From: a virus
UHGV virus genome: UHGV-0176771
Length of the DNA: 64,000 nt
Direction: 5' to 3' (one strand)
Positions within the stretch are counted from its first letter, which is position 1. Every line of letters begins with the position of its first letter. Below the pieces are notes generated by a model. That model had not been told where the DNA came from, searched no databases, and saw nothing but the letters and a program-made list of their open reading frames with translations. This document shows positions 9,310 through 64,000 of this stretch, piece after piece. Position numbers and translations under genes: made by a program.

Positions 9310-9314
9310 TTTTA

Positions 9315-9623
9315 ATGGGTAGTTTTGGACTATATGGAATTCAAAATGTAAGTTTTATTGATCTTGAAACTGGAAAGAAGATTAATATAGATAATGCTTC
9401 AGTGTCGATTGAGGATGAAAAAAGAAATTACAATAATAGTAAACTAAATTTCAAGAATATGAATTTAAAGGATAAAACCTTCGTGTGTGAACTTCCTTAT
9501 ATTAATAAGAAGAAATTGTACAATATATTATATGGGATTACAAATAATTACAGACGTTTGCATGGTGGACATGCTTTGAGAGAAGTAACTAGAAGAAGAT
9601 ACATAATGAAAAATAAAAGATAA
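9315..9623 (+). CDS. hypothetical protein
   Basis: 102-aa ORF, basic C-terminus. Confidence 0.35.
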   Translation: MGSFGLYGIQNVSFIDLETGKKINIDNASVSIEDEKRNYNNSKLNFKNMNLKDKTFVCELPYINKKKLYNILYGITNNYRRLHGGHALREVTRRRYIMKNKR

Positions 9624-9647
9624 GCAAGAAAAAGAGAGGTAATAAGT

Positions 9648-11705
9648 ATGGAATTTAAAGAATTTAGAAATATGATTTCTGATCATTTTAAAACAATGAC
9701 AAAAGATGTTGATAGGTTGTTTGAAGTTGGTGTAGATAAGGATGAAATGTGGAATACATATCTTGATAGTTTTCCGTCAGGAACAAATGAGATTTACAGG
9801 AAAAGAAGGGAATATGATTGTAGTTGTTGTAGACAGTTTATCAAGCAAATTGGTAATGCTGTAGTAGTTAAAGACAATAAGCTGGAGACAATTTGGGATT
9901 TAGACATTCATGATAATAAATTTGAAACTGTTGCAAAAGCTATGTCTGATTTTATAAGAAGGCACTGTGTGACAGACGTGTATGTAAGCAAATTCAAAAA
10001 AATTGGAACAGAGTCCAACTATGAACAGTATGAAGACGGAACAATGAAAAAGTGGGAACATTTTCAAATTATTTTAGACGATAAATTTGTGGACAAAACT
10101 ACTCGATCAATTGGTGATATTAAAGGCGGATTTAGAGACACGAAAAATGTATTTAAAAGGTCTCTTGATGAAATTTCTATGGATGCGTTAGAGACAGTGC
10201 TTGAGCTTATCAATTCCAACACTCTATACAAAGGAGAAGAGTGGAAGTCTATCCTGATGGAATTTAAGAGATATAAGAAAGAATATGAAAAATTAAATTC
10301 TGATGAGGATCGCGATTTATATGCATGGGAGAATTCTGTAAAAGCAGGTATTGCAATTGGACGAATTAGAAATCACAGTATCGGAACACTTCTTGTGAAT
10401 GTAAGTAATGACATGGATCTTGATACAGCAGTAAAAAAATATGAACAGATTGTAGCACCGGCAAATTATAAAAGACCTAAAGCAATTTTTACGAAAAAAA
10501 TGTTAGAAGATGCAAAGAAGACAATTTCTGAATTAGGATATATGGATTCTCTCAATAGAAGATTTGCAACTTTGGATGATATTACGGTGAATAATATTTT
10601 GTTCTCAAATAAAGATGCAGCGAAACGAATTTCAGATTCATCTGACATCTTTGGAGAATTAGAAAAACAGGTTGTAGTTAATCCAAGAAAATTTTCAAGA
10701 GTAGAAGAAATTTCTGCAAATGATTTCATTAAAAATGTCTTACCATCAGCGAAAGAAGTAGAAGTGCTAGTGGAAAACAAGCATTCGAATAATTTTGTTT
10801 CTCTAATTGCTCCTTGCAACAAAGATTCTAAATCAATGTTTAAATGGAACAATGGATTGAGTTGGGCTTATTCAGGCAATATTACGGATTCTGACATGAA
10901 GCAGAATGTAAAAGCTGCAGGTGGAAATGTGGATGGTGTTCTTAGATTCTCTATCCAATGGAATGAAGATGGAAGAGACAATTGTGATTTAGATGCACAT
11001 TGTATTGAACCAAACGGAAATGAAATTTATTTCAGTAATTGTAGAAAACCATCAATGTCATATATGACAGGTCAACTTGATGTAGACATTATTCATCCAA
11101 ATGGCAAGGTTGCTGTGGAAAATATTACATGGTCAGATAAATCAAAAATGAAACCAGGTGTTTACAAATTTTTTGTAAATCAGTATTCAGGAAGTGCTAG
11201 AAATGGATTTAGAGCAGAGATTGAATTCAATGGAGAAATTTATTCTTTTGATTATAGCAATTCAATGAGAACGGGACAAGATGTTTATGTAGCTGATGTA
11301 ATTTTGGATACTAATGGGGAATTTACAATCAAGGAAAAAATTTCCGGGAACTCTAAAGTCTCAAGTAGAACAGTTTGGGGAATTTCAACAAATGAGTTTA
11401 CGCCGGTATCGGTAGTTTGTTATAGCCCAAATTATTTTGACGAACAGGACGGTATTGGTCATAGACATTTGTTCTTTATGTTGAACGGATGTAAAAATGA
11501 TGAAGAACCAAATGGATACTATAATGAATTCTTAAAGAGTGAATTAGAAAAGCATAAAAGAGTATTTGAAGCTCTAGGATCAAAATGCCATGTAGAAGAT
11601 TCTGAGGATCAGCTTTCTGGAATTGGTTTTAGCATGACAAAAAGAGCAGAGCTGGTTGTAAAAGTAAAAGGTGCAACAGAGAGAATTTTAAAAATTAAGT
11701 TTTAA
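9648..11705 (+). CDS. large hypothetical protein (685 aa)
   Basis: Long uninterrupted ORF with a strong RBS (AAGAGAGGTAATAAGT ATG); no motif I can assign with confidence. Confidence 0.5.
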   Translation: MEFKEFRNMISDHFKTMTKDVDRLFEVGVDKDEMWNTYLDSFPSGTNEIYRKRREYDCSCCRQFIKQIGNAVVVKDNKLETIWDLDIHDNKFETVAKAMSDFIRRHCVTDVYVSKFKKIGTESNYEQYEDGTMKKWEHFQIILDDKFVDKTTRSIGDIKGGFRDTKNVFKRSLDEISMDALETVLELINSNTLYKGEEWKSILMEFKRYKKEYEKLNSDEDRDLYAWENSVKAGIAIGRIRNHSIGTLLVNVSNDMDLDTAVKKYEQIVAPANYKRPKAIFTKKMLEDAKKTISELGYMDSLNRRFATLDDITVNNILFSNKDAAKRISDSSDIFGELEKQVVVNPRKFSRVEEISANDFIKNVLPSAKEVEVLVENKHSNNFVSLIAPCNKDSKSMFKWNNGLSWAYSGNITDSDMKQNVKAAGGNVDGVLRFSIQWNEDGRDNCDLDAHCIEPNGNEIYFSNCRKPSMSYMTGQLDVDIIHPNGKVAVENITWSDKSKMKPGVYKFFVNQYSGSARNGFRAEIEFNGEIYSFDYSNSMRTGQDVYVADVILDTNGEFTIKEKISGNSKVSSRTVWGISTNEFTPVSVVCYSPNYFDEQDGIGHRHLFFMLNGCKNDEEPNGYYNEFLKSELEKHKRVFEALGSKCHVEDSEDQLSGIGFSMTKRAELVVKVKGATERILKIKF

Positions 11706-17830: not shown

Positions 17831-19666
17831 ATGGTAGAAAATAAAGATAAAAAATATAATTCAGATAAACATTGGGAACTTGTAAATTTTTGTGAATTTG
17901 ATAAGTATGCAGCAAAGAGCTACTGTGCAATTCACAATGTAGATGAAAATTTGAATCTTGGTGATATCACAAAGGTCGATGAAACTGAATTAGATGATTT
18001 TAATATGATTTGTGGAGGGTCGCCGTGCCAGGATTTCAGCGTGGCAGGAAAACAAAAGGGGTCTGTATGGACTTGTAAAGATTGTGGACATGAATATAAT
18101 CCATTAACAGTTCATTGGAGTAAAAGAGATTGTTGTCCGAATTGTGGAAGTAAAAATATTGAAAAGACAAGATCTTCTCTCCTTGTAGAATATTTACGAG
18201 TAGTTAGATCAAATAGACCTAATTTTGGAATTTATGAAAATGTAAAGAATATTGTTGGAAAACAGTTTAAAGACACAACATTTAAATTATTTACTGATGA
18301 ATTAGAAGAATATGGATATAACGTATATTGGAAGGTTCTGAATGCTAAAAATTATGGAATTCCACAGAACAGAGAACGTGTGTATCTGTTATTTATTAAA
18401 AAGGATTTGGATAATGGTAAGTTTGAATTTCCAGAGCCTTTTGATAATGGATTAAGATTGAAGGATTTATTGGAAGATGAAGTCGATGAGAAGTTCTATA
18501 TTTCTGATGAGAAAGTTGAAAGATTTATTACAAATTTAAATGACAAAAATTCTTTATTATATGATCCATGCCAAGTGAAAAGAGAAGGAAAGAGCAGAGA
18601 ATATTCTGAATATGCACCAACATTAACTTCGAGAGATTATAAAGATCCAAGATTAGTAAATGAAAATGTTGTAAGACAAGTTGGAAATATTTCCGATTGT
18701 AATGGAGCATGGGACAATCCGCAAGTAGGGAGAGTTTATGATGTAAGTGGTTGCAGCCAAACATTGAATACATGTAGTGGTGGTGGTCATGAACCGAAGG
18801 TTATTACAGGAATTGATAAGTCATATAACAATCCAAAATTCATTGAAACGGCAAATTGTATTACTTCACGAGAAGATCGTGGTATTTCAAATAGGAAGTC
18901 TGAAGGTGCAGCAGTTTTAGAAACTCCAAATATTAGTTATTGTTTGGACTCTAACTATTACAAAGGAACAACAATAGAACAATATATGAATAAACATCGT
19001 AGACAATTGATAGTCGAAAATAATAAAGTTGCAATCAAACAAGCTACTAAACAAGGATATATCGAATGTGAAATTGGTGGTGTTGCAGATTTGTCTTATC
19101 CAGACAGTAAAACTAGAAGAGGCCGAGTGCAGGATAATGGGAATACACGCCCAACCATTACGGCTACAGAAACTTGTATTTGTAGAATTGAACCTAAAGA
19201 AAGATTTTTTAAACAAGCACTTGAAACTTTAAATGAAAATGATTGTAAACCAGGAGATACAATTAACGCATTTAATAAACATGTTGACAAAACTGGATTT
19301 TCTCCAACATTAACTACAAGACCAGAAGGATTTAAAACAGCAATTCTACCTGTTACAGATAATATTAGAATTCGTAAGCTAACGCCGAAGGAGTGCTTTA
19401 GGCTTATGGGATTTTCTGATGAAGATTTTGATTCAGCGCAGAAAGCAGGAATCTCAAACAGTCAATTGTACAAGCAAGCTGGAAATTCAATTGTAGTAGA
19501 TGTTCTTTATTACATATATGTAGAGCTTTATAAAGCTATGCCTTATTTGTTTGATGATCTGAAATTAAGTAGTTTCTTCTCTGGAATTGGCGCTTTTGAG
19601 ATTGCACTTGATAGATTATACAAAGGTATTAATTCCGGAAATTTTATCAATCCACAGACAGAGTAA
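17831..19666 (+). CDS. DNA (cytosine-5)-methyltransferase, circularly permuted (motif I at the C-terminus), with an inserted zinc ribbon
   Basis: The motif order runs motif II/III (ELVNFCEFDKYAAKSY) at the N-terminus, then IV (ICGGSPCQDFSVAG), VI (IYENVKNIV), VIII (GIPQNRERVYLL), X (QAGNSIVVDVL), and the AdoMet motif I (LSSFFSGIGAFEIAL) is the last block. A CxxC...CxxC ribbon lies between IV and VI. Confidence 0.75.
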   Translation: MVENKDKKYNSDKHWELVNFCEFDKYAAKSYCAIHNVDENLNLGDITKVDETELDDFNMICGGSPCQDFSVAGKQKGSVWTCKDCGHEYNPLTVHWSKRDCCPNCGSKNIEKTRSSLLVEYLRVVRSNRPNFGIYENVKNIVGKQFKDTTFKLFTDELEEYGYNVYWKVLNAKNYGIPQNRERVYLLFIKKDLDNGKFEFPEPFDNGLRLKDLLEDEVDEKFYISDEKVERFITNLNDKNSLLYDPCQVKREGKSREYSEYAPTLTSRDYKDPRLVNENVVRQVGNISDCNGAWDNPQVGRVYDVSGCSQTLNTCSGGGHEPKVITGIDKSYNNPKFIETANCITSREDRGISNRKSEGAAVLETPNISYCLDSNYYKGTTIEQYMNKHRRQLIVENNKVAIKQATKQGYIECEIGGVADLSYPDSKTRRGRVQDNGNTRPTITATETCICRIEPKERFFKQALETLNENDCKPGDTINAFNKHVDKTGFSPTLTTRPEGFKTAILPVTDNIRIRKLTPKECFRLMGFSDEDFDSAQKAGISNSQLYKQAGNSIVVDVLYYIYVELYKAMPYLFDDLKLSSFFSGIGAFEIALDRLYKGINSGNFINPQTE

Positions 19667-19931
19667 AATCTGTTTGTGGCAAAGAATATTTATGTTTGAA
19701 ATATCAGAGAACTGAGTATGCAAAAAAAATCAGAAAAGAATATGAAGCGGGCAAAATCAAAGAACGTAGATGCAATATGAGAGAATATACATTTAGAACA
19801 GACAGATGCTGTAATACAATAACAACAGTTCAAAAAGATAATTATATTACAGAGATAAATAATTGAAACTCACGTTTCAAATGGAGAAAATATGAAGTAT
19901 AAAGCAAAATTTGTTTTTATTTGGAGGGATA

Positions 19932-20186
19932 ATGATGATTAAGACATTAAAAGATACAGTAGAATTGATGAACAGCGAAGATTATAGAGATCGGTTTGTC
20001 GCTGAATATAAACAGCTTGTAATTAGATATAAAGGATTAATGAATATGTTGGATAAATGGGATAGAGGAGAGTTGAATTTTGAACCGACTTGTCCAAGAA
20101 GTACATATAATATGCAGATTAAAGCAATGACAGATTATATTGTAGTTCTTGAGGCGAGAGCGGTTATGGAAGGAATTATATTATAA
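19932..20186 (+). CDS. hypothetical protein
   Basis: ATG after GGAGGGATA; the track ORF starts at 19911. Confidence 0.4.
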   Translation: MMIKTLKDTVELMNSEDYRDRFVAEYKQLVIRYKGLMNMLDKWDRGELNFEPTCPRSTYNMQIKAMTDYIVVLEARAVMEGIIL

Positions 20187-20281: not shown

Positions 20282-21280
20282 TTGAAAAATTATATTCCCC
20301 AAAAGGCAAGTTCGATTGAAGAGTTAATCAAAGATTGTCCCAAAAATCAAGTTATTCTTGATAATCTAATAAGAGCGTGGGCGATTATTAATAGTCCTAA
20401 ATATAAAAAAATATTATGTAGTATTTCAGGTGGATCTGACAGCGATATTATGTTGGATATTGTTTGGAGATGTGATAAAGACAACAAGGTTGATTACGTT
20501 TGGTTTGATACTGGACTTGAATATCAAGCGACAAAAGACCATTTGGAATATCTTGAGAGAAAATATGATATAAAATTTATTCGCAAAAAAGCAATTAAGC
20601 CTATTCCTATTGCTTGTAAAGAACATGGGAAACCATTCATTTCTAAAAATGTTAGTGAATTTATACAAAGATTACAACGACATAATTTTCAATGGGAAGA
20701 TGAATCTTTTGATGTATTAATAAAAAAATATCCTAAGTGTCAATCTGCTCTTGAATGGTGGTGCAATACTAAAGGGGAAAATTCTCAATTTAATATAAAG
20801 AATAAGAAATGGTTGAAAGAATTTATGATTAAAAATCCACCAGTATTTAAGATTTCAAACAAGTGTTGTACTTACGCAAAAAAGAAAGTTGCGAATAAAA
20901 TATTAAAAGAAAATAAATATGATTTGAATATCATAGGTGTGAGAAAATCTGAAGGTGGTGCTAGAGCAACAGCATACAAAAATTGTTTTGATGATACTGA
21001 TGGAGACTATGATAATTACAGACCTATTTTTTGGTACAGAGATCAAGATAAGATTGATTATGAAAATACATATGGAATTATACATAGCAATTGTTATACA
21101 GAATATGGATTAAAACGTACGGGTTGTGTTGGATGTCCATATGGAAGAAATTTCGAGGATGAATTAGAAGTAGTAAAACAATATGAGCCAAAACTATACA
21201 AGGCTGTTTGTAATATATTTAAGGATTCTTATGAGTATACACGACAATACAAAGAGTTTATAGAAAATATGAAAGGTTAG
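20282..21280 (+). CDS. PAPS-reductase-like PP-loop ATP-pyrophosphatase family protein
   Basis: 332 aa; PP-loop CSISGGSDSD; C-terminal Cys motif GCVGCPYG, as in phage PAPS-reductase/DUF3440-type proteins. TTG start. Confidence 0.5.
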   Translation: MKNYIPQKASSIEELIKDCPKNQVILDNLIRAWAIINSPKYKKILCSISGGSDSDIMLDIVWRCDKDNKVDYVWFDTGLEYQATKDHLEYLERKYDIKFIRKKAIKPIPIACKEHGKPFISKNVSEFIQRLQRHNFQWEDESFDVLIKKYPKCQSALEWWCNTKGENSQFNIKNKKWLKEFMIKNPPVFKISNKCCTYAKKKVANKILKENKYDLNIIGVRKSEGGARATAYKNCFDDTDGDYDNYRPIFWYRDQDKIDYENTYGIIHSNCYTEYGLKRTGCVGCPYGRNFEDELEVVKQYEPKLYKAVCNIFKDSYEYTRQYKEFIENMKG

Positions 21281-31766: not shown

Positions 31767-32728
31767 TGGATATTTCTGAAAAACTGAAAGAACGTTTCTG
31801 TAAAGATTGTAATATTCCATTGAAACTATTTAAGGAACCATATTTTACAGACAGACTTCAATTATATGATAACTATTACAATACATTGGATAAATGGAAT
31901 ATTTTTGTAAGAGAGTTAGAGAAATATAAGTGTGAGCAAGATTATCTTGAAGAATATAATCGAGTAAAGGATGCTGCAATAAAGGACATTAAAGATTCCG
32001 ATGGTTACAAGAGATTAAATGCTGAAGACATGGGAAAATATTCATTAAAATACAAAGATCTCCCAGGTAAAGATATTTATAAACCATCAAATGTTGGGAA
32101 ACTGTTTATTAGTATTGATATGAGAAAGGCAAATTTTTCAGCATTAAAATTTTATGCTAAAAGTATTTTTAGTAACTCTGATACATGGGAAGAATTTATT
32201 GAAAGATATACGGAGAATAAACATATCGTAAACAGCAAATATATTAGACAAGTTATTCTTGGAAACTGTAATCCTAAAAGGCAGGTGACTTATGAAAAAT
32301 ATTTGATGGGTCTTGTATTAGAAGTTCTTATTGATGAATTAGGATATTCCACTAGTGATATTGCGTTTTACTCTAATGATGAAATTGTTATTGATATGGG
32401 AAAATATAAAGGCTGTATAAATAAACAAAAAATATTAGAAATGGCAGTTAACGTACGTTTTAATATTCCATTCAGGATTGAATTGTTTTACTTACACAAA
32501 ATTACTGGTACAGATGGATATTGCAAGGAAATTGTAAAAAATATTATTGAAAGAGAATATGAATTTAAATGCTTAAACAATTATACATTACCATTTGTGC
32601 TGAGAAAGTTTAATGGAGAAGAAATCACTGAAAACGATAAAGTATTTTATCATGAAGGATTACTATCGAAATTTATGGAAGTACCAAATATGGAGGTAAA
32701 ATTGAATGAAAATAAATATTCCGTCTGA
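31766..32728 (+). CDS. hypothetical protein (320 aa) coupled between the NTase and the CCA-adding enzyme
   Basis: Start overlaps the upstream stop (ATG inside ...TTTAATGG); its end overlaps the CCA-adding enzyme start by 23 nt. No motif assigned. Confidence 0.45.
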   Translation: MDISEKLKERFCKDCNIPLKLFKEPYFTDRLQLYDNYYNTLDKWNIFVRELEKYKCEQDYLEEYNRVKDAAIKDIKDSDGYKRLNAEDMGKYSLKYKDLPGKDIYKPSNVGKLFISIDMRKANFSALKFYAKSIFSNSDTWEEFIERYTENKHIVNSKYIRQVILGNCNPKRQVTYEKYLMGLVLEVLIDELGYSTSDIAFYSNDEIVIDMGKYKGCINKQKILEMAVNVRFNIPFRIELFYLHKITGTDGYCKEIVKNIIEREYEFKCLNNYTLPFVLRKFNGEEITENDKVFYHEGLLSKFMEVPNMEVKLNENKYSV

Positions 32729-34043
32729 TGCAAATGAGTTGATTCATACACTTCAAAATCACGGACATTCCGCTTATGTGGTAGGTGGTTGTGTAAGAGA
32801 TAGCATCATTGGAAGACAAATTCACGATTGGGATATTTGTACATCTGCAACACCAGACGAAATGCTGGAGATTTTTAAGGATAAAAAAGTAATTGAAACT
32901 GGCTTAAAACACGGAACTATAACTGTTGTGGTAAAAGGAGAATCATATGAATTAACAACATTTCGTATTGATGGAAAATATTCTGATAGTCGTAGACCTG
33001 ATTCAGTAATTTTCACAAGTAGTTTAATTGAAGATTTAAAGAGACGTGATTTCACAATCAATGCAATGGCATATAATGATGACGAAGGATTAATTGATCC
33101 ATTTGGGGGATTAGAAGATATTGAATATAAAAAAATTCAATGTGTAGGTTCTGCAAAAGATAGATTTGGAGAAGATGCTTTAAGGATATTGAGAGCAATT
33201 CGTTTTGCTTCTCAACTTGAATTTGTGATGACCTCGGAAACAAGTTATGAAATCAATAAACAATACAAAAATTTGAAGAATATTTCGATTGAGAGAATAA
33301 ATAGTGAGTTTTGCAAAATCGCCGCATCAAGAGATTTCTGTGTAGAAATGGTTTTATATAAAGATGTGTTTGCATTGTTTATACCGGAATTAAAAGATAT
33401 GTTTGAATTCCAACAGAATAACCCATATCACGATTATGATGTTTACAGTCATACAGTACATTCAATTGAACATTGTAAATCCGATAATTTGGTTGTTAGA
33501 TTGGCGGTTTTCTTTCATGATATTGGAAAACCTCATTCATTTCAAGATGGCGAAGACGGTATTAGACACTTTAAAGGACATGGAAAAGTTAGTGCAGACA
33601 TTACAGACAATATTATGAAACGTCTCAAATTTGACAATGAAACAAGAAATAATGTGGTTGAATTGGTGTATTACCATGATGCAACCTTTGAGGTTGGTAA
33701 AAAATATGTGAGAAGATGGATCAATAAGATTGGAGTAGAACAGTTTAGAAGACTATTGGAAGTTAGGAAAGCAGATATTTTAGGACAGAAAGAATCTTAT
33801 GAACAGTATAGGATTGACAATGTCGATAATATTAAACAGATTCTTGAAGAAGTTCTACGAGAAGAAACATGTTTTACGCTTAAAGATTTAGCTGTTAATG
33901 GCAACGATTTAATGAGTATTGGTTATAAAGAAAACAAAGAATTAGGCAATACACTAAATGAATTATTACGATTAGTAATTGATGAAGAATGTCCTAATAA
34001 AAAAGAAAAATTATTAGAAGTAGCAATTGAAAGGAGAATGTAA
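32706..34043 (+). CDS. cca: CCA-adding tRNA nucleotidyltransferase (class II) with a C-terminal HD phosphohydrolase domain
   Basis: 445 aa; class II head motif VVGGCVRDSIIGRQIHDWDICT (GGxVRD...DxD) plus RDFTINAMAY; HD motif FFHDIGKP in the C-terminal half. Confidence 0.75.
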   Translation: MKINIPSDANELIHTLQNHGHSAYVVGGCVRDSIIGRQIHDWDICTSATPDEMLEIFKDKKVIETGLKHGTITVVVKGESYELTTFRIDGKYSDSRRPDSVIFTSSLIEDLKRRDFTINAMAYNDDEGLIDPFGGLEDIEYKKIQCVGSAKDRFGEDALRILRAIRFASQLEFVMTSETSYEINKQYKNLKNISIERINSEFCKIAASRDFCVEMVLYKDVFALFIPELKDMFEFQQNNPYHDYDVYSHTVHSIEHCKSDNLVVRLAVFFHDIGKPHSFQDGEDGIRHFKGHGKVSADITDNIMKRLKFDNETRNNVVELVYYHDATFEVGKKYVRRWINKIGVEQFRRLLEVRKADILGQKESYEQYRIDNVDNIKQILEEVLREETCFTLKDLAVNGNDLMSIGYKENKELGNTLNELLRLVIDEECPNKKEKLLEVAIERRM

Positions 34044-53098: not shown

Positions 53099-55270
53099 AT
53101 GAAAGTAATTAAGAGAGATTGTACAGAGGCAAGATTTGAAAAGAAGAAAATTTATGATGCTATTATGAAAGCTATGAAAAATGGTAGTGGTATCATTAAG
53201 CCTAAAATTGCAGAATCTATTGCGGATGAAATTTATGAAGAAAATAAGGACAAATCAGATATAAGCATTTCTGAAATTGAATCGTTGGTATATGACAAGT
53301 TGATCACTAAAAAGCAAAGGCTAACGGCAAAAGCATATGAGGGATATAGAAGTATCCGAGAATTTCAAAGAGAAAATATGAATACAACAGATGAACAGAT
53401 CTCAGAGCTTTTGAGTGGATCAAGCGATTATTGGAATAATGAGAATTCAAATAAAAATCCAAAATTGCTCACAACTCAGAGAGATTATATGGCTGGGATT
53501 TTAAGCACGGATATCACAAGAAGGTTTTTACTTCCTCCTGAAATTGTACAAGCACATGATGAAGGGATGATACATTTTCATGATGCAGATTATTACGCAC
53601 AGAATGCAATTTCAAACTGCTGCTTGATTAATCTTGAAGATATGTTGCAGAACGGAACATGTATTAATAAGGTAACGATTGACAAACCACATAGGCTAAT
53701 TACTGCAACCACAATTGCAACACAAATCATAACTGCAGTTACGTCAAGTCAGTATGGGGGCGCTACGATTACATTAACACATTTAGCTCCGTTTGTAAGA
53801 GATAGCTTTAATATCTATATGGAGAAATATAAAAACAGAGGATTGTCTTATCAGCAATGTCTTGAATTTTCGAGAGAAGATATTAAAAAAGAAATTGCAG
53901 ATTCAGTACAGACCTTCAATTATCAGGTAAATTCTATGACGACAACAAATGGACAAAGCCCCTTCCTCAGCGTATTTATGTATATTGGAGAAACTGAAGA
54001 GTATAAAGAAGAACTTGCAATGCTTATTGAAGAATTTTTAAAGCAAAGAATCCAAGGATTAAAAAATGAAGAAGGCGTATATGTTACACAGGCTTTCCCC
54101 AAATTATTATACGTGTTAGAGCCATGTAATATTGACAAAGACGGAAGTTACTTCTATTTGACAAAACTGGCAGCAGAATGTACAGCAAAGAGAATGGTTC
54201 CTGATTATATTTCCGAAAAAATTATGCTTGAAAACAAGATTGATAAAAATGGAAATGGAAATGTTTATGGATGCATGGGCTGCAGAAGCTTTCTTACCAC
54301 ATACATTAACAAGTCTGGTAAACCGCAGTATTATGGACGGTTTAATCAAGGCGTTGTTACATTAAATTTAGTAGATATTGCATTGTCATCTGGAGGAGAC
54401 ATGGATTCGTTTTGGACGATTTTTGATGAAAGAACGGAATTGTGCCACAAAGCATTGCGTCTTAGACATGAAAGACTGGAGGGTACTTTATCAGACGTGG
54501 CACCTGTTTTATATCAAGACGGAGCATTTGCAAGACTTAAAAAAGGAGAGAAGATTGACGAGCTTTTGCATAATGGATATTCAACAATTTCTCTTGGATA
54601 CGCCGGGTTATACGAATGTGTAAAATACATGACAGGCAATTCTCACACTGACAATGGAGTCGGAACATCATTTGGATTGGAAGTTATGAGCAAGCTTAAT
54701 GATAAATGTAGTGAATGGAAAGGAAAAGAAAACATTGATTACAGTTTATATGGCAGTCCTATTGAATCAACAACATATAAATTTGCCAAATGTTTAAAGA
54801 AAAGATTTGGAGTGATTGATGGAATTACAGATAGAGACTATATTACAAATTCATATCATGTTCCTGTATTTGAAGAGATTGATCCGTTTGAGAAATTAGA
54901 GTTAGAGAGTAAATTTCAGAAGTTAAGTCCGGGTGGTGCAATCAGCTATGTAGAATGTGCAGATCTAACTAGAAATACAGATGTAGTAATTGAAATTATG
55001 AAATTTATTTATGAGCATATCATGTATGCGGAGTTAAATACTAAATCTGATTATTGCCAGGAATGTGGTTATGACGGTGAGATTAAAATTATTGATGAAG
55101 ATGGAGAACTTATCTGGGAATGTCCGAATTGTGGTAACAGAAATAAAGATAAGATGAATGTCACTAGAAGAACATGTGGATATATTGGTACAAATTTCTG
55201 GAATCAAGGAAGAACAGAAGAGATCAAAGAAAGATATGTTCATGTAGACGACCATGAAGCGGAGGTATAA
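53099..55270 (+). CDS. nrdD: anaerobic ribonucleoside-triphosphate reductase
   Basis: 723 aa; N-terminal ATP-cone (VIKRDCTEARFEKKKIYDAI); C-terminal Zn ribbon CQECGYDGE...CPNCGN; glycyl-radical motif TRRTCGYIG. Confidence 0.9.
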   Translation: MKVIKRDCTEARFEKKKIYDAIMKAMKNGSGIIKPKIAESIADEIYEENKDKSDISISEIESLVYDKLITKKQRLTAKAYEGYRSIREFQRENMNTTDEQISELLSGSSDYWNNENSNKNPKLLTTQRDYMAGILSTDITRRFLLPPEIVQAHDEGMIHFHDADYYAQNAISNCCLINLEDMLQNGTCINKVTIDKPHRLITATTIATQIITAVTSSQYGGATITLTHLAPFVRDSFNIYMEKYKNRGLSYQQCLEFSREDIKKEIADSVQTFNYQVNSMTTTNGQSPFLSVFMYIGETEEYKEELAMLIEEFLKQRIQGLKNEEGVYVTQAFPKLLYVLEPCNIDKDGSYFYLTKLAAECTAKRMVPDYISEKIMLENKIDKNGNGNVYGCMGCRSFLTTYINKSGKPQYYGRFNQGVVTLNLVDIALSSGGDMDSFWTIFDERTELCHKALRLRHERLEGTLSDVAPVLYQDGAFARLKKGEKIDELLHNGYSTISLGYAGLYECVKYMTGNSHTDNGVGTSFGLEVMSKLNDKCSEWKGKENIDYSLYGSPIESTTYKFAKCLKKRFGVIDGITDRDYITNSYHVPVFEEIDPFEKLELESKFQKLSPGGAISYVECADLTRNTDVVIEIMKFIYEHIMYAELNTKSDYCQECGYDGEIKIIDEDGELIWECPNCGNRNKDKMNVTRRTCGYIGTNFWNQGRTEEIKERYVHVDDHEAEV

Positions 55271-57280: not shown

Positions 57281-57799
57281 ATGAAAAAAGTAGCGAAGTT
57301 TAGCAAGGTGAGTTTTGAACAGTTTGTAGAAGATTGCAAAGGTATTTTAGGAGATGTCTACATTGAAAACAAAATGGAATGCTTATCAGAAAAATATAAG
57401 AATATTAATATTCCAAAGAGAAGCACAGCATGTAGTGCCGGGCATGATATTAGTACGCCTTTCAATATTAAAATGACTTCGCATCAAAGTATTACAATTC
57501 CAACTGGTCTTAGGTGTGAAATGGATAGAGATTACGTAATGCTGATTTTCCCGCGTAGTAGTCTTGGGATTAAGAAAGGAATGACGATCGCCAATACTGT
57601 TCCAGTTGTAGATGCCGATTATGCCTATGCGGATAACGAAGGACATATTTTTATCTGTATTAAGAACAATGGAGAGGACATGCTTGAATTGGAAGAAGGA
57701 GACAAAATTGTACAGGCTGTATTTGTTCCATTCGGTGTTGCAGACGAGGAAGAAATCACAACTGAACGCACTGGCGGTATTGGCTCAACAGGAAAGTAG
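57281..57799 (+). CDS. dut: dUTP diphosphatase
   Basis: 172 aa; dUTPase motifs AGHDI, PRSSLGIKKG, VVDADYAY, and C-terminal RTGGIGSTGK. Confidence 0.75.
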   Translation: MKKVAKFSKVSFEQFVEDCKGILGDVYIENKMECLSEKYKNINIPKRSTACSAGHDISTPFNIKMTSHQSITIPTGLRCEMDRDYVMLIFPRSSLGIKKGMTIANTVPVVDADYAYADNEGHIFICIKNNGEDMLELEEGDKIVQAVFVPFGVADEEEITTERTGGIGSTGK

Positions 57800-57807
57800 G
57801 TGATAAA

Positions 57808-57990
57808 ATGATTGAATTTGTTTTAGGGAATGTCATTCTATTTTTTCTATCTATTGTGGTTGTACATGCTCTGTTTAAATCAACAGGTGATACAATCGAT
57901 AAATATGACATTCCGTATTTTGTGATCAGTGTAGCGATTATTTATAGTTTGTCAGCACAATTTTATAATGTGTTTGCTGGAACGATTTAG
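57808..57990 (+). CDS. hypothetical small membrane protein
   Basis: 60 aa; two hydrophobic segments; last + strand phage-type ORF before the transposon. Confidence 0.35.
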   Translation: MIEFVLGNVILFFLSIVVVHALFKSTGDTIDKYDIPYFVISVAIIYSLSAQFYNVFAGTI

Positions 57991-58021
57991 GGAACAACGG
58001 AGATATGGTAAAAAATATCCC

Positions 58022-58051
58022 TTGTAAAATTTTGTAGAATCATGATATACT
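58022..58051 (+). promoter_or_regulatory. sigma-A-type promoter candidate (TTGTAA-18-TGaTATACT, extended -10)
   Basis: -35 TTGTAA (58022-58027), 18-nt spacer, TGnTATACT extended -10 (58043-58051). The predicted transcript would run into the terminator at 58152-58198. Confidence 0.4.
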
Positions 58052-58151
58052 GAATACAAAGGTATGATTCTATGTCAAAAGGCAAACACCATTTACTTCA
58101 AAAGGGCAAAACCGATTTTTGTCTCATAATTTTATAGCACAAATAGAATTA

Positions 58152-58198
58152 GACCTTGAAAAATGTATTTTTACATTTTCAGGGTCTTTTTTACTTTT
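58152..58198 (+). terminator. rho-independent terminator
   Basis: GACCTTGAAAAATGTA-tttt-TACATTTTCAGGGTC is a 15-bp near-perfect stem (one mismatch, one bulge), followed by TTTTTTACTTTT. Confidence 0.6.
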
Positions 58199-58315
58199 AC
58201 AAAGTGGCTTAAAACCTAGGGAAATTGAGTGTTATTTCTGAATGAAAGTGCAATTTCATTCGGTTATAAAAGCCTTCATTTTTTATATTTGAAATCTGCG
58301 AAAGGAAAATCAACT

Positions 58316-58520
58316 TTGCCCTTTTTGGGAAAACGGATGTTGCCCCTTGACATATAGAAATTTAAAAATGCTGTTTTTGGGAAAACTATTTTTGGGAGAA
58401 AACAACGCAAATTCAACGTTTATTGGCATCTTCACTCTCCCAAAAATAAAGGATTTGGGGAAAAAATTTATCCCAAAAACGTTTTTGGGAGATTTTTGGG
58501 AGCATTTTTGGGAAAATCAT
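58316..58520. repeat. cluster of at least 9 direct and inverted copies of TTTTTGGGAR; candidate TnsB-binding sites of the transposon right end
   Basis: Copies at about 58323, 58374, 58389, 58436 (rc), 58451 (variant), 58464 (rc), 58480, 58491 and 58505; three are tandem immediately upstream of tnsA. Confidence 0.5.
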
Positions 58521-58552
58521 GCCTTAAAAATTCAGAAGGAGAATACAAGAAA

Positions 58553-58897
58553 ATGCGTAAAAAAAATTACAAGGGTCGATGTGAGAAGAGGACAATATCG
58601 AAAAGTAAAGATGTGTGCAGATTCTACGATCCAATTCAATCGAGTTTTGCAGAAATTCTTAACGCAGATCCAGACATTGAGGAAATTCGTTGCAATGTAG
58701 TTTTAGATGGAAAAGACACAGGCGAATATATGACAGATTTTCTTTGTATTAAAACAAACGGAGATATGCTTGTCCGTGAATGTGTCTATCGAAAATTTCT
58801 CACAAAACCTATGACAGTCAAATTCTTAGACATTAGCAAAGATTATTGGTTGAGACACGGTATTGAAGATTGGGGTGTTGTAATTGATGCAGAATAA
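58553..58897 (+). CDS. tnsA: TnsA-like PD-(D/E)xK endonuclease, short (catalytic domain only)
   Basis: ATG after AAGGAGAATACAAGAAA; MTDFLCIKTNGDMLVRECVYRK aligns to Tn7 TnsA STDFLVDCKDGPFEQFAIQVKP (D114...K132 region); overlaps the tnsB start. Only 115 aa, against about 270 aa for Tn7 TnsA. Confidence 0.5.
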   Translation: MRKKNYKGRCEKRTISKSKDVCRFYDPIQSSFAEILNADPDIEEIRCNVVLDGKDTGEYMTDFLCIKTNGDMLVRECVYRKFLTKPMTVKFLDISKDYWLRHGIEDWGVVIDAE

Positions 58898-60716
58898 TTA
58901 TTTATTAAAAAACAATGACGATATTATTCGAGTTTTGGATGTGCAGCATGGACAGTCTTTAATCATAGATTGCATTAAACTGTCTATGCCAAAGTGGATT
59001 CTTAACAATCAGATAGATTCATTTGTGCCCTTTTCTGAAAATGATTTGTCTGAAATAACAGGCATATACACACAAGATATGGAAGATTTTTCATCTAACA
59101 GTAGAAAATTTATTCATGAACATTTCTCATTAATTGCAAGTATTCTGCCATATATATCTGAACCACAGAAAAGAAATGAAGCCATAAATACTATTTCGGA
59201 AGAGAGAGGCGTCTCAAAAACAACTATAAGAAAATACTTATGTTTGTATTTAGCGTATCAAGATATGTCTGTATTCGCACCAAAAAAGAAAAATCGAAAA
59301 TTAGAACTGTCTACAGATGAAAAGAATATGAGATGGGCGTTAAATAAATTTTACTATACTAGGAAGAAAAATACTCTTAATACAGCTTATACAATGCTTT
59401 TAAAAGAAAAATACTGTGATACAAATGGAAAGTTATTGACACATCATCCATCATTTTATCAGTTCCGGTATTTTTATCGCAAGACAAAAAAACTGCAAAC
59501 CTATTATATCTCAAGAAATGGGATAAAAAATTACCAGAGGAATAACAGACCGTTGATAGGAGATGGTGTACAACAATTTGCTCCAAATGTAGGGATTGGG
59601 ATGTTGGACGCAACAGTATGTGATATATATTTGGTTGATAATTCAGGAAATCTAGTTGGAAGACCAATATTAACCACATGTATAGATGCGTATAGCAGCC
59701 TGTGTTGTGGATATGCATTAACATGGGAAGGTGGAATATATAGTCTAAAAAACTTGATGCTAAATATCATTACAGACAAAGTAGAATTGTGCAAGAAACA
59801 TGGAATTATTATAAGTAAGCAAGAATGGAATATTGATCAGGTTCCCGGAGTGATGATTACAGATAAGGGTAGCGAATATAAATCAGAAGTATTTGAACAA
59901 TTAACTGAACTTGGGATTACAATAACAAATTTGCCACCATATAGACCAGAATTAAAAGGTTCTGTAGAGAAGTTTTTTGATTTAGTACAAGGATACTACA
60001 AAGAATATTTAAAAGGTAAAGGAGTAGTTAATCCAGACTTTCAAGAGCGTGGATGTCATGACTATAGAAAAGACGCCTGCCTGACATTAGAAGACTTTGA
60101 AAAGATAATATTGCGTTGTATATTGTATTATAATTCACAACGCATTTTAAAGAATTTTCCATACACAGAAGATATGATAAAAAATAATATTCAACCATAT
60201 GCAAATACAATATTTGAATATGGCAAAAAACGTATCGGAGCAAACTTAATATCTGTAAGTTCTAAAAATATAATTTATTCAATGCTTCCGAGAATAACAG
60301 GGAAATTTTCGCGTCGTGGTTTGATTGTAAATAAAATGAGATATCACTGTGATGGATATACGGAAGAATATTTAAACGGCGATTATGTAAAAGTGGCATA
60401 TGATTCAAATGACGTTACCACAGTATGGGCTATTTTGAACGGTGAATATGTTCCGTTTAATATTATTGAAAATAGGTTCAATGGAATGGATATTACAGAA
60501 ACAGATGCATTGCTGCAAGAACAAAAAAGGTTGGTGGCAAAAGAAGAATATAATAACATGCAGTCGAAAATTGATTTGGCTAAATATATAGAGACGATTG
60601 CTAATAATGTATGTCGAAAGCAAGATACAAAAATTAAAAATGTTAAACAAACAAGGAAAAGAGAAACGTATCGCACACACATTGACCATATAAACGGAGG
60701 AGTCGATTATGAGTAA
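58884..60716 (+). CDS. tnsB: Tn7-like transposase TnsB (DDE / rve-fold, Mu-transposase family)
   Basis: 610 aa; DDE triad contexts MLDATVCDIYLVDN ... VMITDKGSEYKS ... KGSVEKFF; N-terminal HTH region; gene order A-B-C-D. Confidence 0.75.
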   Translation: MMQNNYLLKNNDDIIRVLDVQHGQSLIIDCIKLSMPKWILNNQIDSFVPFSENDLSEITGIYTQDMEDFSSNSRKFIHEHFSLIASILPYISEPQKRNEAINTISEERGVSKTTIRKYLCLYLAYQDMSVFAPKKKNRKLELSTDEKNMRWALNKFYYTRKKNTLNTAYTMLLKEKYCDTNGKLLTHHPSFYQFRYFYRKTKKLQTYYISRNGIKNYQRNNRPLIGDGVQQFAPNVGIGMLDATVCDIYLVDNSGNLVGRPILTTCIDAYSSLCCGYALTWEGGIYSLKNLMLNIITDKVELCKKHGIIISKQEWNIDQVPGVMITDKGSEYKSEVFEQLTELGITITNLPPYRPELKGSVEKFFDLVQGYYKEYLKGKGVVNPDFQERGCHDYRKDACLTLEDFEKIILRCILYYNSQRILKNFPYTEDMIKNNIQPYANTIFEYGKKRIGANLISVSSKNIIYSMLPRITGKFSRRGLIVNKMRYHCDGYTEEYLNGDYVKVAYDSNDVTTVWAILNGEYVPFNIIENRFNGMDITETDALLQEQKRLVAKEEYNNMQSKIDLAKYIETIANNVCRKQDTKIKNVKQTRKRETYRTHIDHINGGVDYE

Positions 60717-61959
60717 AACTACGGAATCAATTTATAATTTACCACCTATTTTATCAGGAGAACGACTGATTTCGTCTTTGACTGTATTGCCAGAATATGA
60801 GCCATCAATTATTCATAAAAGCGAAACAGAACGTTTAATGGCGCTGTCAGATATATATAGAATATATATACCATCAAAAATGTCCCAAGAGATATATAGC
60901 AAATTGTATCTTTCATTAATGCGTTCATTGCAGAAGAAAAGGACAGATCCATTTGTTATGCAACAGCAACAAAACAATTTTAGAATGATTCAAAAGAAGT
61001 TTTATAATGGTGGAATTATAGGTGGGTCAGATTCTTTTTCTATTATTGGTAATTCTGGAATAGGGAAAAGTGCATCTATATTTAGAGCAATTGATTTAAT
61101 AACAGACAGTACAGTCATAGAGTTTGAAAATCCATATGCAAAGGTAATACCGTCTCTGGTGGTGCAATGCCCCTTTGACTCTTCTGTAAAAGGACTTCTA
61201 TTGGAAATATTAAGAAAAGCTGATGAACTTCTTGGCTCAAAATACTATGAAAATGCGATCAAAATAAAGGCTACAACAGATACATTAATAGGTTGTGTCA
61301 GTCAAATTGCCTTGAACAATATCGGATTGTTAATTGTCGATGAAATACAAAATATATGTAATTCAAAAAATGGCAAAACTTTAGTTGGTAGTATAACGCA
61401 ACTGGTCAATAATTCCGGTATAAGTATTTGCTTTGTAGGAACTCCGGAATGTAAAAATTTTTTTGACAAAGCAATGCATCTTGCAAGGAGAACAATGGGG
61501 TTAGAATATACGTCTCTTGACTTTGATGTTGAATTTACCATGTTTTGTAAAATTATTTTTCAGTATCAGTACATGGAAGAAAGAATTGAAATTACTGATA
61601 AGATTATTAAATGGCTATACGACCACTCGTCTGGGAATGTTTCTATTGTTATAGCGCTTCTACATGACGCACAGGAGATAGGCATTCTGTCCGGACATAA
61701 ATCATTAAGTATTGATCTTTTTGAAATAGCATATAAACAAAGAATGTCTGTTTTACACGATTATATAAATATTCCAGACAAACAAAAATTAAAGCTGTGC
61801 AGTAAAAAAGATAAGCAAATTATCGAACGAGATAGTACAAAAGAAATAAACGATAATTTAAAAATATCTGATATTGTACAGGAATCGAAACAAAACAATA
61901 TTAATATTGTTTTATTGCTGAAAAAATACAATTTAATCGCCGAGGAGATATCGCTATGA
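60709..61959 (+). CDS. tnsC: TnsC/TniB-like AAA+ ATPase
   Basis: 416 aa; Walker A IIGNSGIGKSAS; Walker B LLIVDEIQNI; overlaps tnsB and tnsD. Confidence 0.7.
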   Translation: MSKTTESIYNLPPILSGERLISSLTVLPEYEPSIIHKSETERLMALSDIYRIYIPSKMSQEIYSKLYLSLMRSLQKKRTDPFVMQQQQNNFRMIQKKFYNGGIIGGSDSFSIIGNSGIGKSASIFRAIDLITDSTVIEFENPYAKVIPSLVVQCPFDSSVKGLLLEILRKADELLGSKYYENAIKIKATTDTLIGCVSQIALNNIGLLIVDEIQNICNSKNGKTLVGSITQLVNNSGISICFVGTPECKNFFDKAMHLARRTMGLEYTSLDFDVEFTMFCKIIFQYQYMEERIEITDKIIKWLYDHSSGNVSIVIALLHDAQEIGILSGHKSLSIDLFEIAYKQRMSVLHDYINIPDKQKLKLCSKKDKQIIERDSTKEINDNLKISDIVQESKQNNINIVLLLKKYNLIAEEISL

Positions 61960-63566
61960 TTGCTTATGTGCCAACAATGTATCCAGATGAAACTGTGTAT
62001 AGCTTACTTACAAGAATATATGAAAAAAGTGGATATCTATCATATGCTCATGCAAAAAATGATTTTTTTGTTAATCCAAAAGAGGGAATTGAATTTTTGT
62101 TCTTAAATAAGTTAAGCAAAGAACTCATAGATATTATCACTCGGAATCAAACGCTAGATGACGTAATAAAGAATCACACGCTATATAATTATTATGGAAG
62201 ATATCTTGGAGTTGAAAAAAGAAAAGATGCATACAATTCTCTGTGCAACATGACAGGAGATTATTTCCGTATTTTCGTATTAAATAAAAAATCTTCAGAG
62301 GAAACTTATCTCCGTTATTGTCCCATGTGCGTAAGTGAAGATAAACATATTTATGGGGAAACATATTGGAAACGTACACATCAAATACCAGAATTAGAAG
62401 TGTGTCCTGTCCATGGGTGCAAATTATTAAATAGTAATGTTTCAAATAATAAACATAGGGCTATGTCATTTATCTCTGCAAATACAGCCGTGAAAGACTT
62501 AACCATAATTCAAGGATCAGAACAAGATATAAAACTGGCAGAATATATAGGTGCTTCAGTGTGCGAAAATATAGAATACAATGACGATTTATTGATCGGT
62601 AAATATCTCACATCCAAGTTGGAAGGTACAAAATATTTATCATCATGTGGGAATGGAATCAATCGAAAATTATTATTTCAGGACTTAACAAATTTTTATA
62701 GTGGGTGTAAATATGTAATTCAAGAAATAAATCATTTATCTAAGATTTTTCATGGGAAAAGAACAAAGCCTTTTGAAATTATTCAGATTGCTATGTTTTT
62801 AAAAATCCCATGTAATGAATTAGCTAACGCACAGAATCCAGACAAGACTCCATCAGAAAAATTTGAGCAAAAGGTTATTAACATGCTCCGGGACAAAACA
62901 ATGGAAGAGGTGTCTTCTAAATTAAATATTTCAAAATCCGCCATTAAAATTATTATACGAAAACATAACGGAGTAGCAGATAATTACACAAAATACGAAA
63001 TACAAGAATGTAGGAAAATATGGACTGATACCATAAAAGAATATCCAAACTGTTCTTTTCAAGAGATTTGTATGTACTCTAAATATAGATTAAGTTTACA
63101 ATGGTTAAGAAGAAACGATAAAGAATGGACAGACAAACATTATCCACGTAAACAAATAAATTCTGTCAGGCAACAAAATATCGACTTATTAGACAAAAAA
63201 TATCTGTCACAAATTGAAAATGTAATTCAAGAGTATAGGGAGCGCCAAGGTGAAATGCCAAAACGAATAACGATAAACGCAATTAGCAACTATATTGGTA
63301 TCCCTGGTAGACAATTATATTATATGAAACAATGCAGAGCTGTTATAGAAAAATATGCAGAAACAGACGAGGAATTTCGAGTCAGAAAAATATTATGGGC
63401 TGTTGATATGTTACAAAGAGATAATAAGAAGTTGACTTTCAATCAGATAAGAAAACTGACACATATTCATTCAGGGCACTATTACAAATGTCGTCCTCTT
63501 CTTGTAGATACGATAGGGGAGGAAACAGTTCTTCGTATTGATCCAAATACTTCTATTGTGAGTTAA
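61956..63566 (+). CDS. tnsD: TnsD/TniQ-family target-selection protein
   Basis: 536 aa; TniQ N-terminus (YVPTMYPDETVYSLLTRIYEKSGY) and zinc finger YCPMCVSEDKHIYGETYWKRTHQIPELEVCPVHGCKLL. Confidence 0.7.
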   Translation: MIAYVPTMYPDETVYSLLTRIYEKSGYLSYAHAKNDFFVNPKEGIEFLFLNKLSKELIDIITRNQTLDDVIKNHTLYNYYGRYLGVEKRKDAYNSLCNMTGDYFRIFVLNKKSSEETYLRYCPMCVSEDKHIYGETYWKRTHQIPELEVCPVHGCKLLNSNVSNNKHRAMSFISANTAVKDLTIIQGSEQDIKLAEYIGASVCENIEYNDDLLIGKYLTSKLEGTKYLSSCGNGINRKLLFQDLTNFYSGCKYVIQEINHLSKIFHGKRTKPFEIIQIAMFLKIPCNELANAQNPDKTPSEKFEQKVINMLRDKTMEEVSSKLNISKSAIKIIIRKHNGVADNYTKYEIQECRKIWTDTIKEYPNCSFQEICMYSKYRLSLQWLRRNDKEWTDKHYPRKQINSVRQQNIDLLDKKYLSQIENVIQEYRERQGEMPKRITINAISNYIGIPGRQLYYMKQCRAVIEKYAETDEEFRVRKILWAVDMLQRDNKKLTFNQIRKLTHIHSGHYYKCRPLLVDTIGEETVLRIDPNTSIVS

Positions 63567-63577
63567 AAGGTAAAAAA

Positions 63578-63625
63578 ATGGGTAGAAGAGGAATTAACCT
63601 CAACTACCCATATCATTATTATTTA
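63578..63625. terminator. bidirectional rho-independent terminator between the convergent tnsD and minus-strand genes
   Basis: ATGGGTAGAAGAGG-aattaa-CCTCAACTACCCAT is a perfect 8-bp outer stem plus a 4-bp inner stem, followed by a T-rich run on the + strand and an A-rich run upstream. Confidence 0.55.
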
Positions 63626-63888
63626 ATTCTTTTTGCTGCAGCTTCAAGTCTAATATGCCACGGAGCATCTTTTGTAAATTGATAACTCGGCATTTCTTTA
63701 CCGTTGTTGTCTCTGTAAATTTTTGTCAGAATATTTAATTCGTCCGGATGACCAAGAGGATGTACGGACTGTCCATCAAAATAGTAAACACAATTTTCTC
63801 CCTTTACACTATATAAACATTGCATAGTCGTTTCTCCTTTCTTTTCTGAAACATTATTTGGATTTCCATTACTTACAGAACCACCCAT
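63619..63888 (-). CDS. hypothetical protein (possible transposon cargo)
   Basis: 89-aa minus-strand ORF, convergent with tnsD, outside any + strand gene; RBS GGTGGTTCTG-like on the minus strand is unclear. Confidence 0.35.
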   Translation of the reverse strand: MGGSVSNGNPNNVSEKKGETTMQCLYSVKGENCVYYFDGQSVHPLGHPDELNILTKIYRDNNGKEMPSYQFTKDAPWHIRLEAAAKRIK

Positions 63889-64000
63889 AAGTTCTCTGAT
63901 TCGTTTAACAAAATATGCCTTTGTTGCCGCAACACCACCATGTATTTCTACTGACCTATGCGGACAAGCAGTAGGGAATACTTCTTGATGTAGGCGGATC

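Follow-up and report, generated by a model that had tools for sequence, protein, structure and literature searches.

The window analysed here, a stretch of 64,000 nucleotides of the virus genome UHGV-0176771, carries toward its 3' end the genes tnsA, tnsB, tnsC and tnsD/tniQ, whose products resemble those of Tn7-like transposons, preceded by a 280-bp end unit (Table 1). The backbone of the window is that of a large phage, with a DnaB-like helicase, a RecJ-like exonuclease, a DNA polymerase, an NAD-dependent ligase, NrdD/NrdG, a dUTPase and a nicotinamide phosphoribosyltransferase, and a protein look-up traced the window proteins to contigs of ~174 kb. An original prediction, made from the letters of the window, had read the locus as a Tn7-like transposon resident in a phage. 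We show here that near-identical phages are integrated whole and site-specifically in a host chromosome, with the hallmarks of Tn7-type transposition. We consider it likely that positions 57991-63565 are the lysogeny module of a ~174-kb temperate phage of gut Lachnospiraceae, in which the tns machinery would act on the 280-bp unit and the prophage would be a cointegrate.

Table 1. Features of the tns module and of its borders in the window
Feature	Position	Strand	Description
60-aa small phage ORF	57808..57990	+	last gene common with integrase-type siblings; left edge of the replaceable slot
Promoter-like site TTGTAA-18-TATACT, upstream TG (extended -10)	58022..58051	+	scan hit; reads into the end unit
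End unit, 280 bp, TGT...ACA	58073..58352	.	probable mini-transposon; host junctions exactly at 58073 and 58352
Left arm	58073..58119	+	two direct ~16-bp sites, TCAAAAGGCAAACACC and TCAAAAGGGCAAAACC, 23 bp apart; terminus 5'-TGT
Intrinsic terminator, hairpin and U-tract inside the unit	58151..58195	+	RNA fold dG -20.3 kcal/mol, z -6.2
Right arm	58306..58352	-	inverted copy of the left arm; terminus ...ACA-3'
Donor flank, 19 nt, TATAG/TAGAG...	58353..58371	+	between unit and repeat array; length conserved in the family
TTTTTGGGA repeat array	58372..58516	.	both orientations; between unit and tnsA; outside the duplicated unit
tnsA	58553..58897	+	minimal, nuclease domain only; 114 aa from ATG
tnsB	58887..60716	+	DDE transposase, 609 aa
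tnsC	60709..61959	+	TniB-type AAA+ regulator, 416 aa
tnsD/tniQ	61956..63566	+	target selector, 536 aa
Hairpin between convergent tnsD and endolysin	63578..63611	.	RNA fold dG -18.1, z -5.7; right edge of the slot
Endolysin (amidase), 3' part	63619..64000	-	phage backbone, not cargo

The tns genes, the end unit and the slot they occupy

The open reading frames (ORFs), their Pfam and PHROGs matches and a fold match to Tn7 TnsA bear out the predicted Tn7-like tnsABCD set with a truncated TnsA reduced to its nuclease domain. TnsB matched Mu-transpos_C (2e-4) and, weakly, rve in Pfam, PF27135 (HTH_TnsB) is precomputed for the protein, and in PHROGs it matched the transposase family phrog_310 (7e-31). 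Its DDE residues, D242, D327 and E362, do not vary among 11 aligned homologues, and it has more than 4,000 close homologues of ~609 aa. TnsC matched TniB (1.7e-10) and AAA_22 (2.6e-11) in Pfam and a DNA transposition protein in PHROGs (1e-9), and TnsD matched the Pfam families TniQ (8.4e-19) and TnsD (9.6e-16). In one contig of 5x coverage (L003/L074, the same phage, positions 2988-4817; L numbers are our labels for individual loci and contigs), tnsB is found in three ORFs of 268, 242 and 76 aa and the endolysin is shorter; this broken tnsB could be a sequencing error or an inactivated copy.

The short TnsA, whose mechanical ORF starts from a TTG at 58496 (133 aa), gave a marginal match to Pfam TnsA_N (8e-3), a family weakly matched by 15 of 17 family members. 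A profile search against PDB sequences did not find TnsA, but a fold search did: an AlphaFold model made with 28 homologues (pLDDT 88) had Tn7 TnsA as its sole significant PDB match (1t0f/1f1z, E 9e-6, TM 0.81 over the query). The protein corresponds to the N-terminal nuclease domain of Tn7 TnsA and is without the C-terminal domain. A ~114-aa tnsA lies directly upstream of tnsB in 80/80 related bacterial genome loci, and 746 database homologues were found, mostly of 114-115 aa, the longer entries looking like N-terminally extended ORF calls. Because all of these loci and homologues share the ~114-aa form, the short TnsA appears to be the norm of the family, neither a frameshift nor decay, both of which the original prediction had considered. 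A local hhalign comparison with Tn7 TnsA, weak and of low confidence, aligned D114 with D62 and E63 with Q29 and found no Lys at K132. The Tn7 sequence for this comparison was an approximate query, and its numbering reproduces the literature positions E63, D114 and K132. Where K132 would fall, the local sequence after D62 is R75-E76-C77-V78, so that the 'E.K' motif proposed for this protein has no literal match; Q29, D62, R75 and E76 are invariant among short TnsA homologues.

Upstream of tnsA, the arms of the end unit form an inverted repeat of 49 nt, 73% complementary, and their ~16-bp sites, two per arm, are presumed TnsB sites. The terminator hairpin has the conserved stem GACCTTG in nearly all family members. 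It had been taken for the end of the phage dut operon, and the element had been thought to start at 58230; 58151-58187 is instead part of the mobile end unit, inside which 58230 also lies, and the module begins at ~57991/58073. The repeat-rich region noted upstream of tnsA is real: TTTTTGGGA is present in 8 copies in 58322-58513, one of them in the right arm, compared with 1.2 expected for the whole window. The array is kept in all relatives examined, only on the tnsA side, and it may be an operator of the tns operon or a transposition enhancer. In every relative inspected, in phages as in chromosomes, the order is conserved, with the TGT arm followed by the GACCTTG terminator, the arm ending GACA, the 19-nt TAGAG-type flank, the TTTTTGGGA repeats and tnsA. 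We also considered the unit as a separate miniature inverted-repeat transposable element beside the real right end, which was rejected as the whole story given its fixed 19-nt distance to the array in every family member, and as a noncoding RNA gene or an att-site mimic, for which Rfam matches were at chance level.

The promoter-like site is followed by a conserved 'CAAGGT..CTA' flank abutting the TGT terminus. Diverged phages have the same promoter and flank ahead of their unit, and two chromosomal elements, L115 and L096, have them ahead of the distal unit, where the flank is of the same kind as the one before the single unit in phages. The predicted transcript (window 58058-58198; also in L028, L038, L070, L096 and L115) would start close to a conserved 'CAAGGT(C/T)T'. 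This motif is complementary to the 5' half of the terminator stem (AGACCTTG), itself conserved, and could on that account be an anti-terminator. The predicted RNA would include the left arm, complementary to the right arm upstream of tnsA, and such a promoter-to-terminator RNA may provide an RNA-level control of tns expression.

The borders of the module emerged from closely related phage backbones that have no tnsABCD (L019 and L023). By blastn, homology to these siblings ends at 57982 and resumes at 63565; from there to 63612, around the stop codon of tnsD and the hairpin that follows it, they are 100% identical to the window. Backbone and slot, from the small ORF after dut to the endolysin terminator, are the same, but the slot of L019/L023 contains an HTH_17 excisionase-like gene, attP-like direct repeats and a 442-aa tyrosine integrase instead of tnsABCD and the end unit. 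Several sibling contigs part from L019 within the attP-like repeat region, as integrated copies would. This comparison with relatives lacking the module, which the original prediction had proposed, supports a replacement of the slot content and not the insertion of a transposon into a phage. Judging from these alignments, tnsABCD and the end unit appear to fill the slot used in the siblings by the integrase, the excisionase-like gene and the attP-like repeats, and the tns set would be the integration module of the phage itself rather than a passenger transposon.

On the other side of the module, the convergent genes begin 53 nt past tnsD, with the endolysin and, further on, a tail protein. A left end downstream of tnsD with cargo was a candidate that we dropped, as inverted-repeat and motif scans of the window and of 10 kb beyond it were negative; likewise, the repeat motifs from upstream of tnsA did not recur in the other 58 kb of the window nor in the 10 kb downstream. 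The original prediction had expected this left end and its cargo past 64000, to be reached by extending the contig, and the extension led to phage lysis and tail genes. CRISPR-Cas had been named as a possible cargo; there are only 53 nt between tnsD and the endolysin, no cas genes are present in the module, no CRISPR-type repeat or known RNA family was found in 57500-59000, and no resolvase is present among the genes of the tns module.

Integration of whole phages next to gdh

The isolate Lachnospiraceae bacterium 2_1_58FAA has a tnsA-covering ORF 99% identical to that of the window, and this ORF led to two contexts. In the phage context (L170, L171 and L173), dut and the small ORF are followed by the unit, tnsABCD and the endolysin. 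In the host context, represented by the isolate scaffold GL945346.1 (GCA_000218465.1, L169) and the metagenome contigs L172 and L174-L176, the order is metH ... alaS, rpsU, gdh, unit, tnsABCD, then the endolysin and phage genes. A third type of junction, in which dut and the unit are followed by host sequence, is found in L009.

These junctions could be read to the nucleotide. In L174, ACGATATTACAAA comes directly after the gdh stop codon and leads into the TGT that corresponds to window 58073; L009 is as the window up to 58352 and continues with ACAAATCATAC. The uninterrupted site was present in 49 human-gut metagenome contigs, where it reads gdh-TAA-ACGATAT(C/T)-ACAAA-TCATACAAAAAT, followed by the gdh terminator. 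The insertion point is therefore 13 nt past the gdh stop codon, and ACAAA, single copy in the empty sites, is the 5-bp target-site duplication on both sides of the prophage, a feature that the original prediction had named as worth looking for. Positions 58073-58352 are precisely the stretch that is duplicated at the two prophage/host junctions, with one unit per prophage end in direct orientation and the tns genes on the gdh-proximal side. The unit is identical at 279/279 positions among the left, right and phage junctions, and at 277-279/279 over all junction types.

Two candidates were discarded. A '245-nt insertion' between 58352 and 58353 in L009 and L025, considered as a small mobile element or captured DNA, is host sequence downstream of gdh. 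L025 as a real junction was also rejected, being a mis-scaffold with an N at the false join (~3049), where sequence of the host comes to lie between the unit and tnsA; the empty site confirms that L009 is a true junction of prophage and host. In the isolate scaffold L169, an N gap at 9211-9706 has the end unit on both sides.

A phage found whole in a host chromosome next to gdh agrees with phage-borne dissemination, one of the options that had been raised for this locus. Because phages with a TnsD of the window type insert adjoining gdh, we infer that TnsD recognises the 3' end of host gdh. In the lysogen, the terminator of the unit stops read-through from gdh.

The junction of the window itself (dut, unit, tns genes) belongs to the free or replicating form. 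The contig SRR5899003_10, of 174,048 nt, starts at window 58460 and ends at window 58476, which makes the map self-closing. This k=31 assembly is unbroken, which argues against a second 280-bp unit in the free phage, since an extra copy should break the assembly; in a related phage group, the right-arm pattern occurs a single time in each of three contigs of 205-222 kb. Other assemblies of the phage and its relatives contain contigs that end 29, 54, 76 or 80 nt past the TGT, and others that begin 53-55 or 76 nt ahead of the ACA. Such breaks lie about k-1 nt inside the unit (k = 31, 55, 77 and 81) and therefore indicate that in those samples the unit is a repeat with two contexts.

Relatives in phages and in chromosomes

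A scan of GTDB genomes returned 80 chromosomal members of the family and no prophage of the window phage, and no close relative of the window was found among GenBank phages and PLSDB plasmids. The chromosomal cassettes, in Lachnospiraceae, Oscillospiraceae, Ruminococcus, Blautia and Negativicutes, lie after ppdK, guaA or gpmI, and in the loci that we read the unit begins ~10-20 nt past the stop codon of these genes, tnsA being always proximal. The element of Anaerotruncus sp. G3 (L115) is complete: ppdK is followed by the unit, 19 nt, the repeats, tnsABCQ, ~5 kb of cargo, the promoter with its 'CAAGGTCAAGGATACTA' flank, a second unit and the host terminator. Its two units are in direct orientation and 94% identical, and the flanks of the element are ATTTT/ATTTC. 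In L096, two units stand back to back where two elements sit in tandem. These two elements (L088 and L096, on CATLHM010000007.1) follow one ppdK, ~27 kb apart, with 4 nt between the distal unit of the first and the proximal unit of the second; one att site has thus been used twice despite any target immunity. In the cargo of another chromosomal member inserted after ppdK (L005), a Pistol ribozyme (19317-19388, 64.8 bits) and a type-P5 twister (19903-19958, 55.2 bits) lie ~500 nt apart, both above the Rfam gathering score. Chromosomal members and one phage member also have a gene of ~150-180 aa on the opposite strand soon after tniQ, with no family match (L005 14940-15422, L006 6001-6483, L041 14982-15440 and 8 genome loci).

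Among phages, the two relatives L027 and L028 (TnsB 71% and 65% identical to that of the window) have tnsABCD between dut and the convergent lysis/tail genes, and in ~30 viral contigs of 100-220 kb (TnsB 51-55% identical) the cassette is downstream of nrdD/nrdG and, where present, dut. In L026 (TnsB 63% identical, 185.8 kb), phage genes follow tnsD, and the contig end opens with a host-like asnA, of which the final 46 codons are present; the asnA part has a GC content of ~52% against 30% for the phage, and the unit begins 4 nt past its stop codon. In a neighbour-joining tree of TnsB, rough and without support values, the phage-borne copies are spread over several clades, deep ones included, and do not form one shallow clade; in the same tree, the clade of the window TnsB is sister to the gpmI-type chromosomal elements.

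Some further features concern the phage backbone. In window 1-63600, nearly all long ORFs are on the + strand and the GC skew is strongly positive, reaching zero at ~63 kb, the start of the convergent lysis/structural genes; the lysogeny module is located at this strand switch. The window encodes a nicotinamide phosphoribosyltransferase (5244-6734), a tRNA nucleotidyltransferase (32706-34043) and a PAPS-reductase-like protein (20282-21280), auxiliary genes of a kind typical of large phages. In several related phages (L028 4245-6684, L078 2226-4651 and L170 5054-7479), nrdD is split into two ORFs of ~407 and 320 aa separated by a gap of ~130-240 nt, which suggests an intron or another intervening element that is absent from the window, where nrdD (53099-55270) is unsplit.

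Route of integration, comparison with known systems and meaning

For the window phage, we propose the following route. The DNA acted on would be 58073-58352, with tnsABCD and the rest of the phage outside the unit and on the same circle. TnsD would read the gdh 3' end and TnsC would bring in TnsB, which would nick and transfer the 3' ends of the unit only. The minimal TnsA would leave the 5' ends uncut, and replication through the unit would then join phage and chromosome in a cointegrate, that is, the prophage, whose excision would be a recombination between the two direct 280-bp repeats. Replicative transposition is proposed because the product has the geometry of a cointegrate, as expected for a small transposon in a circular donor, and the replicative variant suggested by the original prediction fits an integrated form flanked by two direct copies of the end unit. 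Active-site mutants of Tn7 TnsA give cointegrates, as do Tn5053 and the type V-K CRISPR-associated transposons (CASTs), which lack TnsA. A minimal TnsA, as predicted from the model and alignments, fits the cointegrate proposal.

Several points weigh against this proposal. The replicative step is deduced from the product, and other routes yield an equal product; no resolvase or excision factor was identified. The short TnsA may be active in cleavage, given the invariant D62, R75 and E76, and the pair of units in L115, only 94% identical, is more in keeping with an old insertion or conventional cut-and-paste than with a fresh cointegrate. The window's own variant of the unit (280 nt, TATAG flank) was seen in phage junctions only, the host junctions coming from a variant with 271/279 unit positions matching the window and tns genes 97-99% identical. 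The junction evidence consists of assembled contigs, and only ~74 of the 174 kb of the phage were read directly. In principle, a one-unit junction might also arise when an assembler merges the pair of identical units that a prophage has, although the junction is seen again in many other assemblies, and diverged phages show it in long contigs.

Two other routes would lead to the same end product, and we rank both below a cointegrate formed by replicative transposition. An active TnsA could, together with TnsB, cut and paste a unit-phage-unit segment from a concatemer, a dimer or terminally redundant virion DNA, again giving two direct units and a 5-bp duplication. Phages make concatemers, and Tn7, or an infecting Mu, would be pasted after excision in like manner; the nuclease fold of TnsA is kept with D62 and E76 invariant, and the non-identical units of L115 suit an element that moves whole. 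We nevertheless regard this route as rather unlikely, since the low-confidence alignment has no Lys at the position of Tn7 K132 and Q29 in place of E63, the C-terminal domain is missing, the chromosomal members of the family have no obvious concatemeric stage, and the units of the lysogen are identical (279/279). A two-step course seems improbable to us: here the 280-bp unit, which has all that a mini-transposon needs, would transpose alone to the gdh site, and the phage circle would then enter by homologous recombination through RecA or a phage recombinase. Tandem units do occur in L096, but two rare events are needed where one suffices, and none of the 49 matching contigs had a solo unit at gdh, all being empty sites, although the search pattern could detect empty sites only.

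Two further readings deny the phage a module of its own. That an ordinary Tn7-like transposon sits after dut, with its left end and cargo past 64000, or as a decaying one-ended relic, is very improbable, even if the gene order and the repeat-rich end resemble the right end of Tn7. Lysis and tail genes start 53 nt past tnsD, there is no second end in the 58 kb upstream or the 10 kb downstream, the genome assembles at k=31 as one self-closing contig, the cassette is in the same neighbourhood and with an intact DDE in phages whose TnsB is only 51-72% identical, and junctions of whole phages with the host exist. The least credible explanation is a chimeric join of phage and chromosomal transposon near 58000, a possibility already raised by the original prediction. 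The unit is indeed a repeat that breaks or mis-joins assemblies (the N at the false join of L025, the N gap of L169), but dut, unit, tnsABCD and endolysin follow each other in independent ENA, Logan, JGI and IMG/VR assemblies and in diverged phages, and the GC content is even across the junction, with no break in composition.

The module shares with Tn7 and Tn7-like elements the same four protein families in the same order, with a TnsA of the Tn7 TnsA fold and a DDE triad in TnsB, as well as TGT...ACA termini with repeated subterminal sites, a 5-bp target duplication and oriented insertion at a fixed short distance past a conserved housekeeping gene, which is gdh in this phage and ppdK, guaA, gpmI or asnA in relatives. 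Tn7 homes to attTn7, downstream of glmS. The module differs from Tn7 in that TnsA has 114 aa, no C-terminal domain and non-canonical active-site residues, and TnsC is short and TniB-like (416 aa). Moreover, the inverted ends of Tn7 enclose the tns genes and the cargo, whereas here both termini are in one unit of 250-280 bp and the tns genes lie beyond it. A single copy of this unit is present in the free form, the two borders of the integrated element each have a copy in direct orientation, and the 'cargo' is a complete self-replicating phage of 174 kb. Two distinct inverted ends enclosing the tns genes, a defining structural feature of Tn7-like elements, were not found, while TnsB, TnsC, TniQ, the 5-bp duplication and the specific site and orientation were.

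Tn5053/Tn402 and type V-K CASTs likewise have a TniB-type ATPase and TniQ without full TnsA function, and they transpose replicatively to give cointegrates. Unlike in these systems, a TnsA-fold protein is present here and strictly conserved; there is no resolvase/res (TniR) in the module as in Tn5053/Tn402, and there is no Cas12k and no CRISPR as in type V-K CASTs. A cointegrate would here be the functional end state, the prophage, and not an intermediate awaiting resolution. Mu is likewise a phage with a DDE transposase of the same superfamily, an AAA+ partner and a 5-bp duplication. However, Mu integrates near-randomly without TniQ/TnsD or TnsA, uses transposition to replicate, does not exist as a free circle and carries host flanks in its packaged DNA. 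The window phage instead has its own replisome genes (DnaB-like helicase, DNA polymerase and ligase), a self-closing map, a single specific att site, and TniQ/TnsD and TnsA. With an integrated form bearing transposition hallmarks and an unintegrated form, it belongs to the functional class of temperate phages with a transposition-based lysogeny module.

For the family at large, we hold with even confidence a broader view. A broad group of 100-220-kb phages of gut Bacillota would establish lysogeny by a Tn7-like TnsA-B-C-D set acting on one 250-280-bp unit; TnsD would choose the 3' end of a housekeeping gene as target, and replicative transposition would yield a stable cointegrate of phage and chromosome. 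The minimal TnsA would be kept for a role other than 5' cleavage, an RNA driven by the promoter over the left arm and ending at the terminator may regulate the process, and the same design would be found in thousands of chromosomal islands of Lachnospiraceae and Oscillospiraceae.

To our knowledge, phages become lysogenic through integrases, by Mu-type random transposition or by plasmid-like maintenance. Transposition that moves a large phage in its entirety to a specific site, under the direction of TniQ/TnsD, would add one more route. A published phage using Tn7-type machinery for lysogeny was not found in full-text literature that covers few subscription journals, and a prior description is possible. 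A survey of target selectors from 2023 mentions phages only for Mu (PMC10293859), and the 2021 survey of 6,549 Tn7-like elements reported no homologues in viral genomes (PMC8649781), a result that the present phages contradict.

The mobile DNA would be the 280-bp unit and its payload all else on the circle, here 174 kb. This explains why assemblies of these prophages and islands are fragmented at fixed points, and it offers a testable handle on the role of TnsA in the choice between cut-and-paste and replicative transposition. Targeted cointegrates with a very large payload, made by a compact set of proteins (114 + 609 + 416 + 536 aa), may also interest builders of insertion tools.

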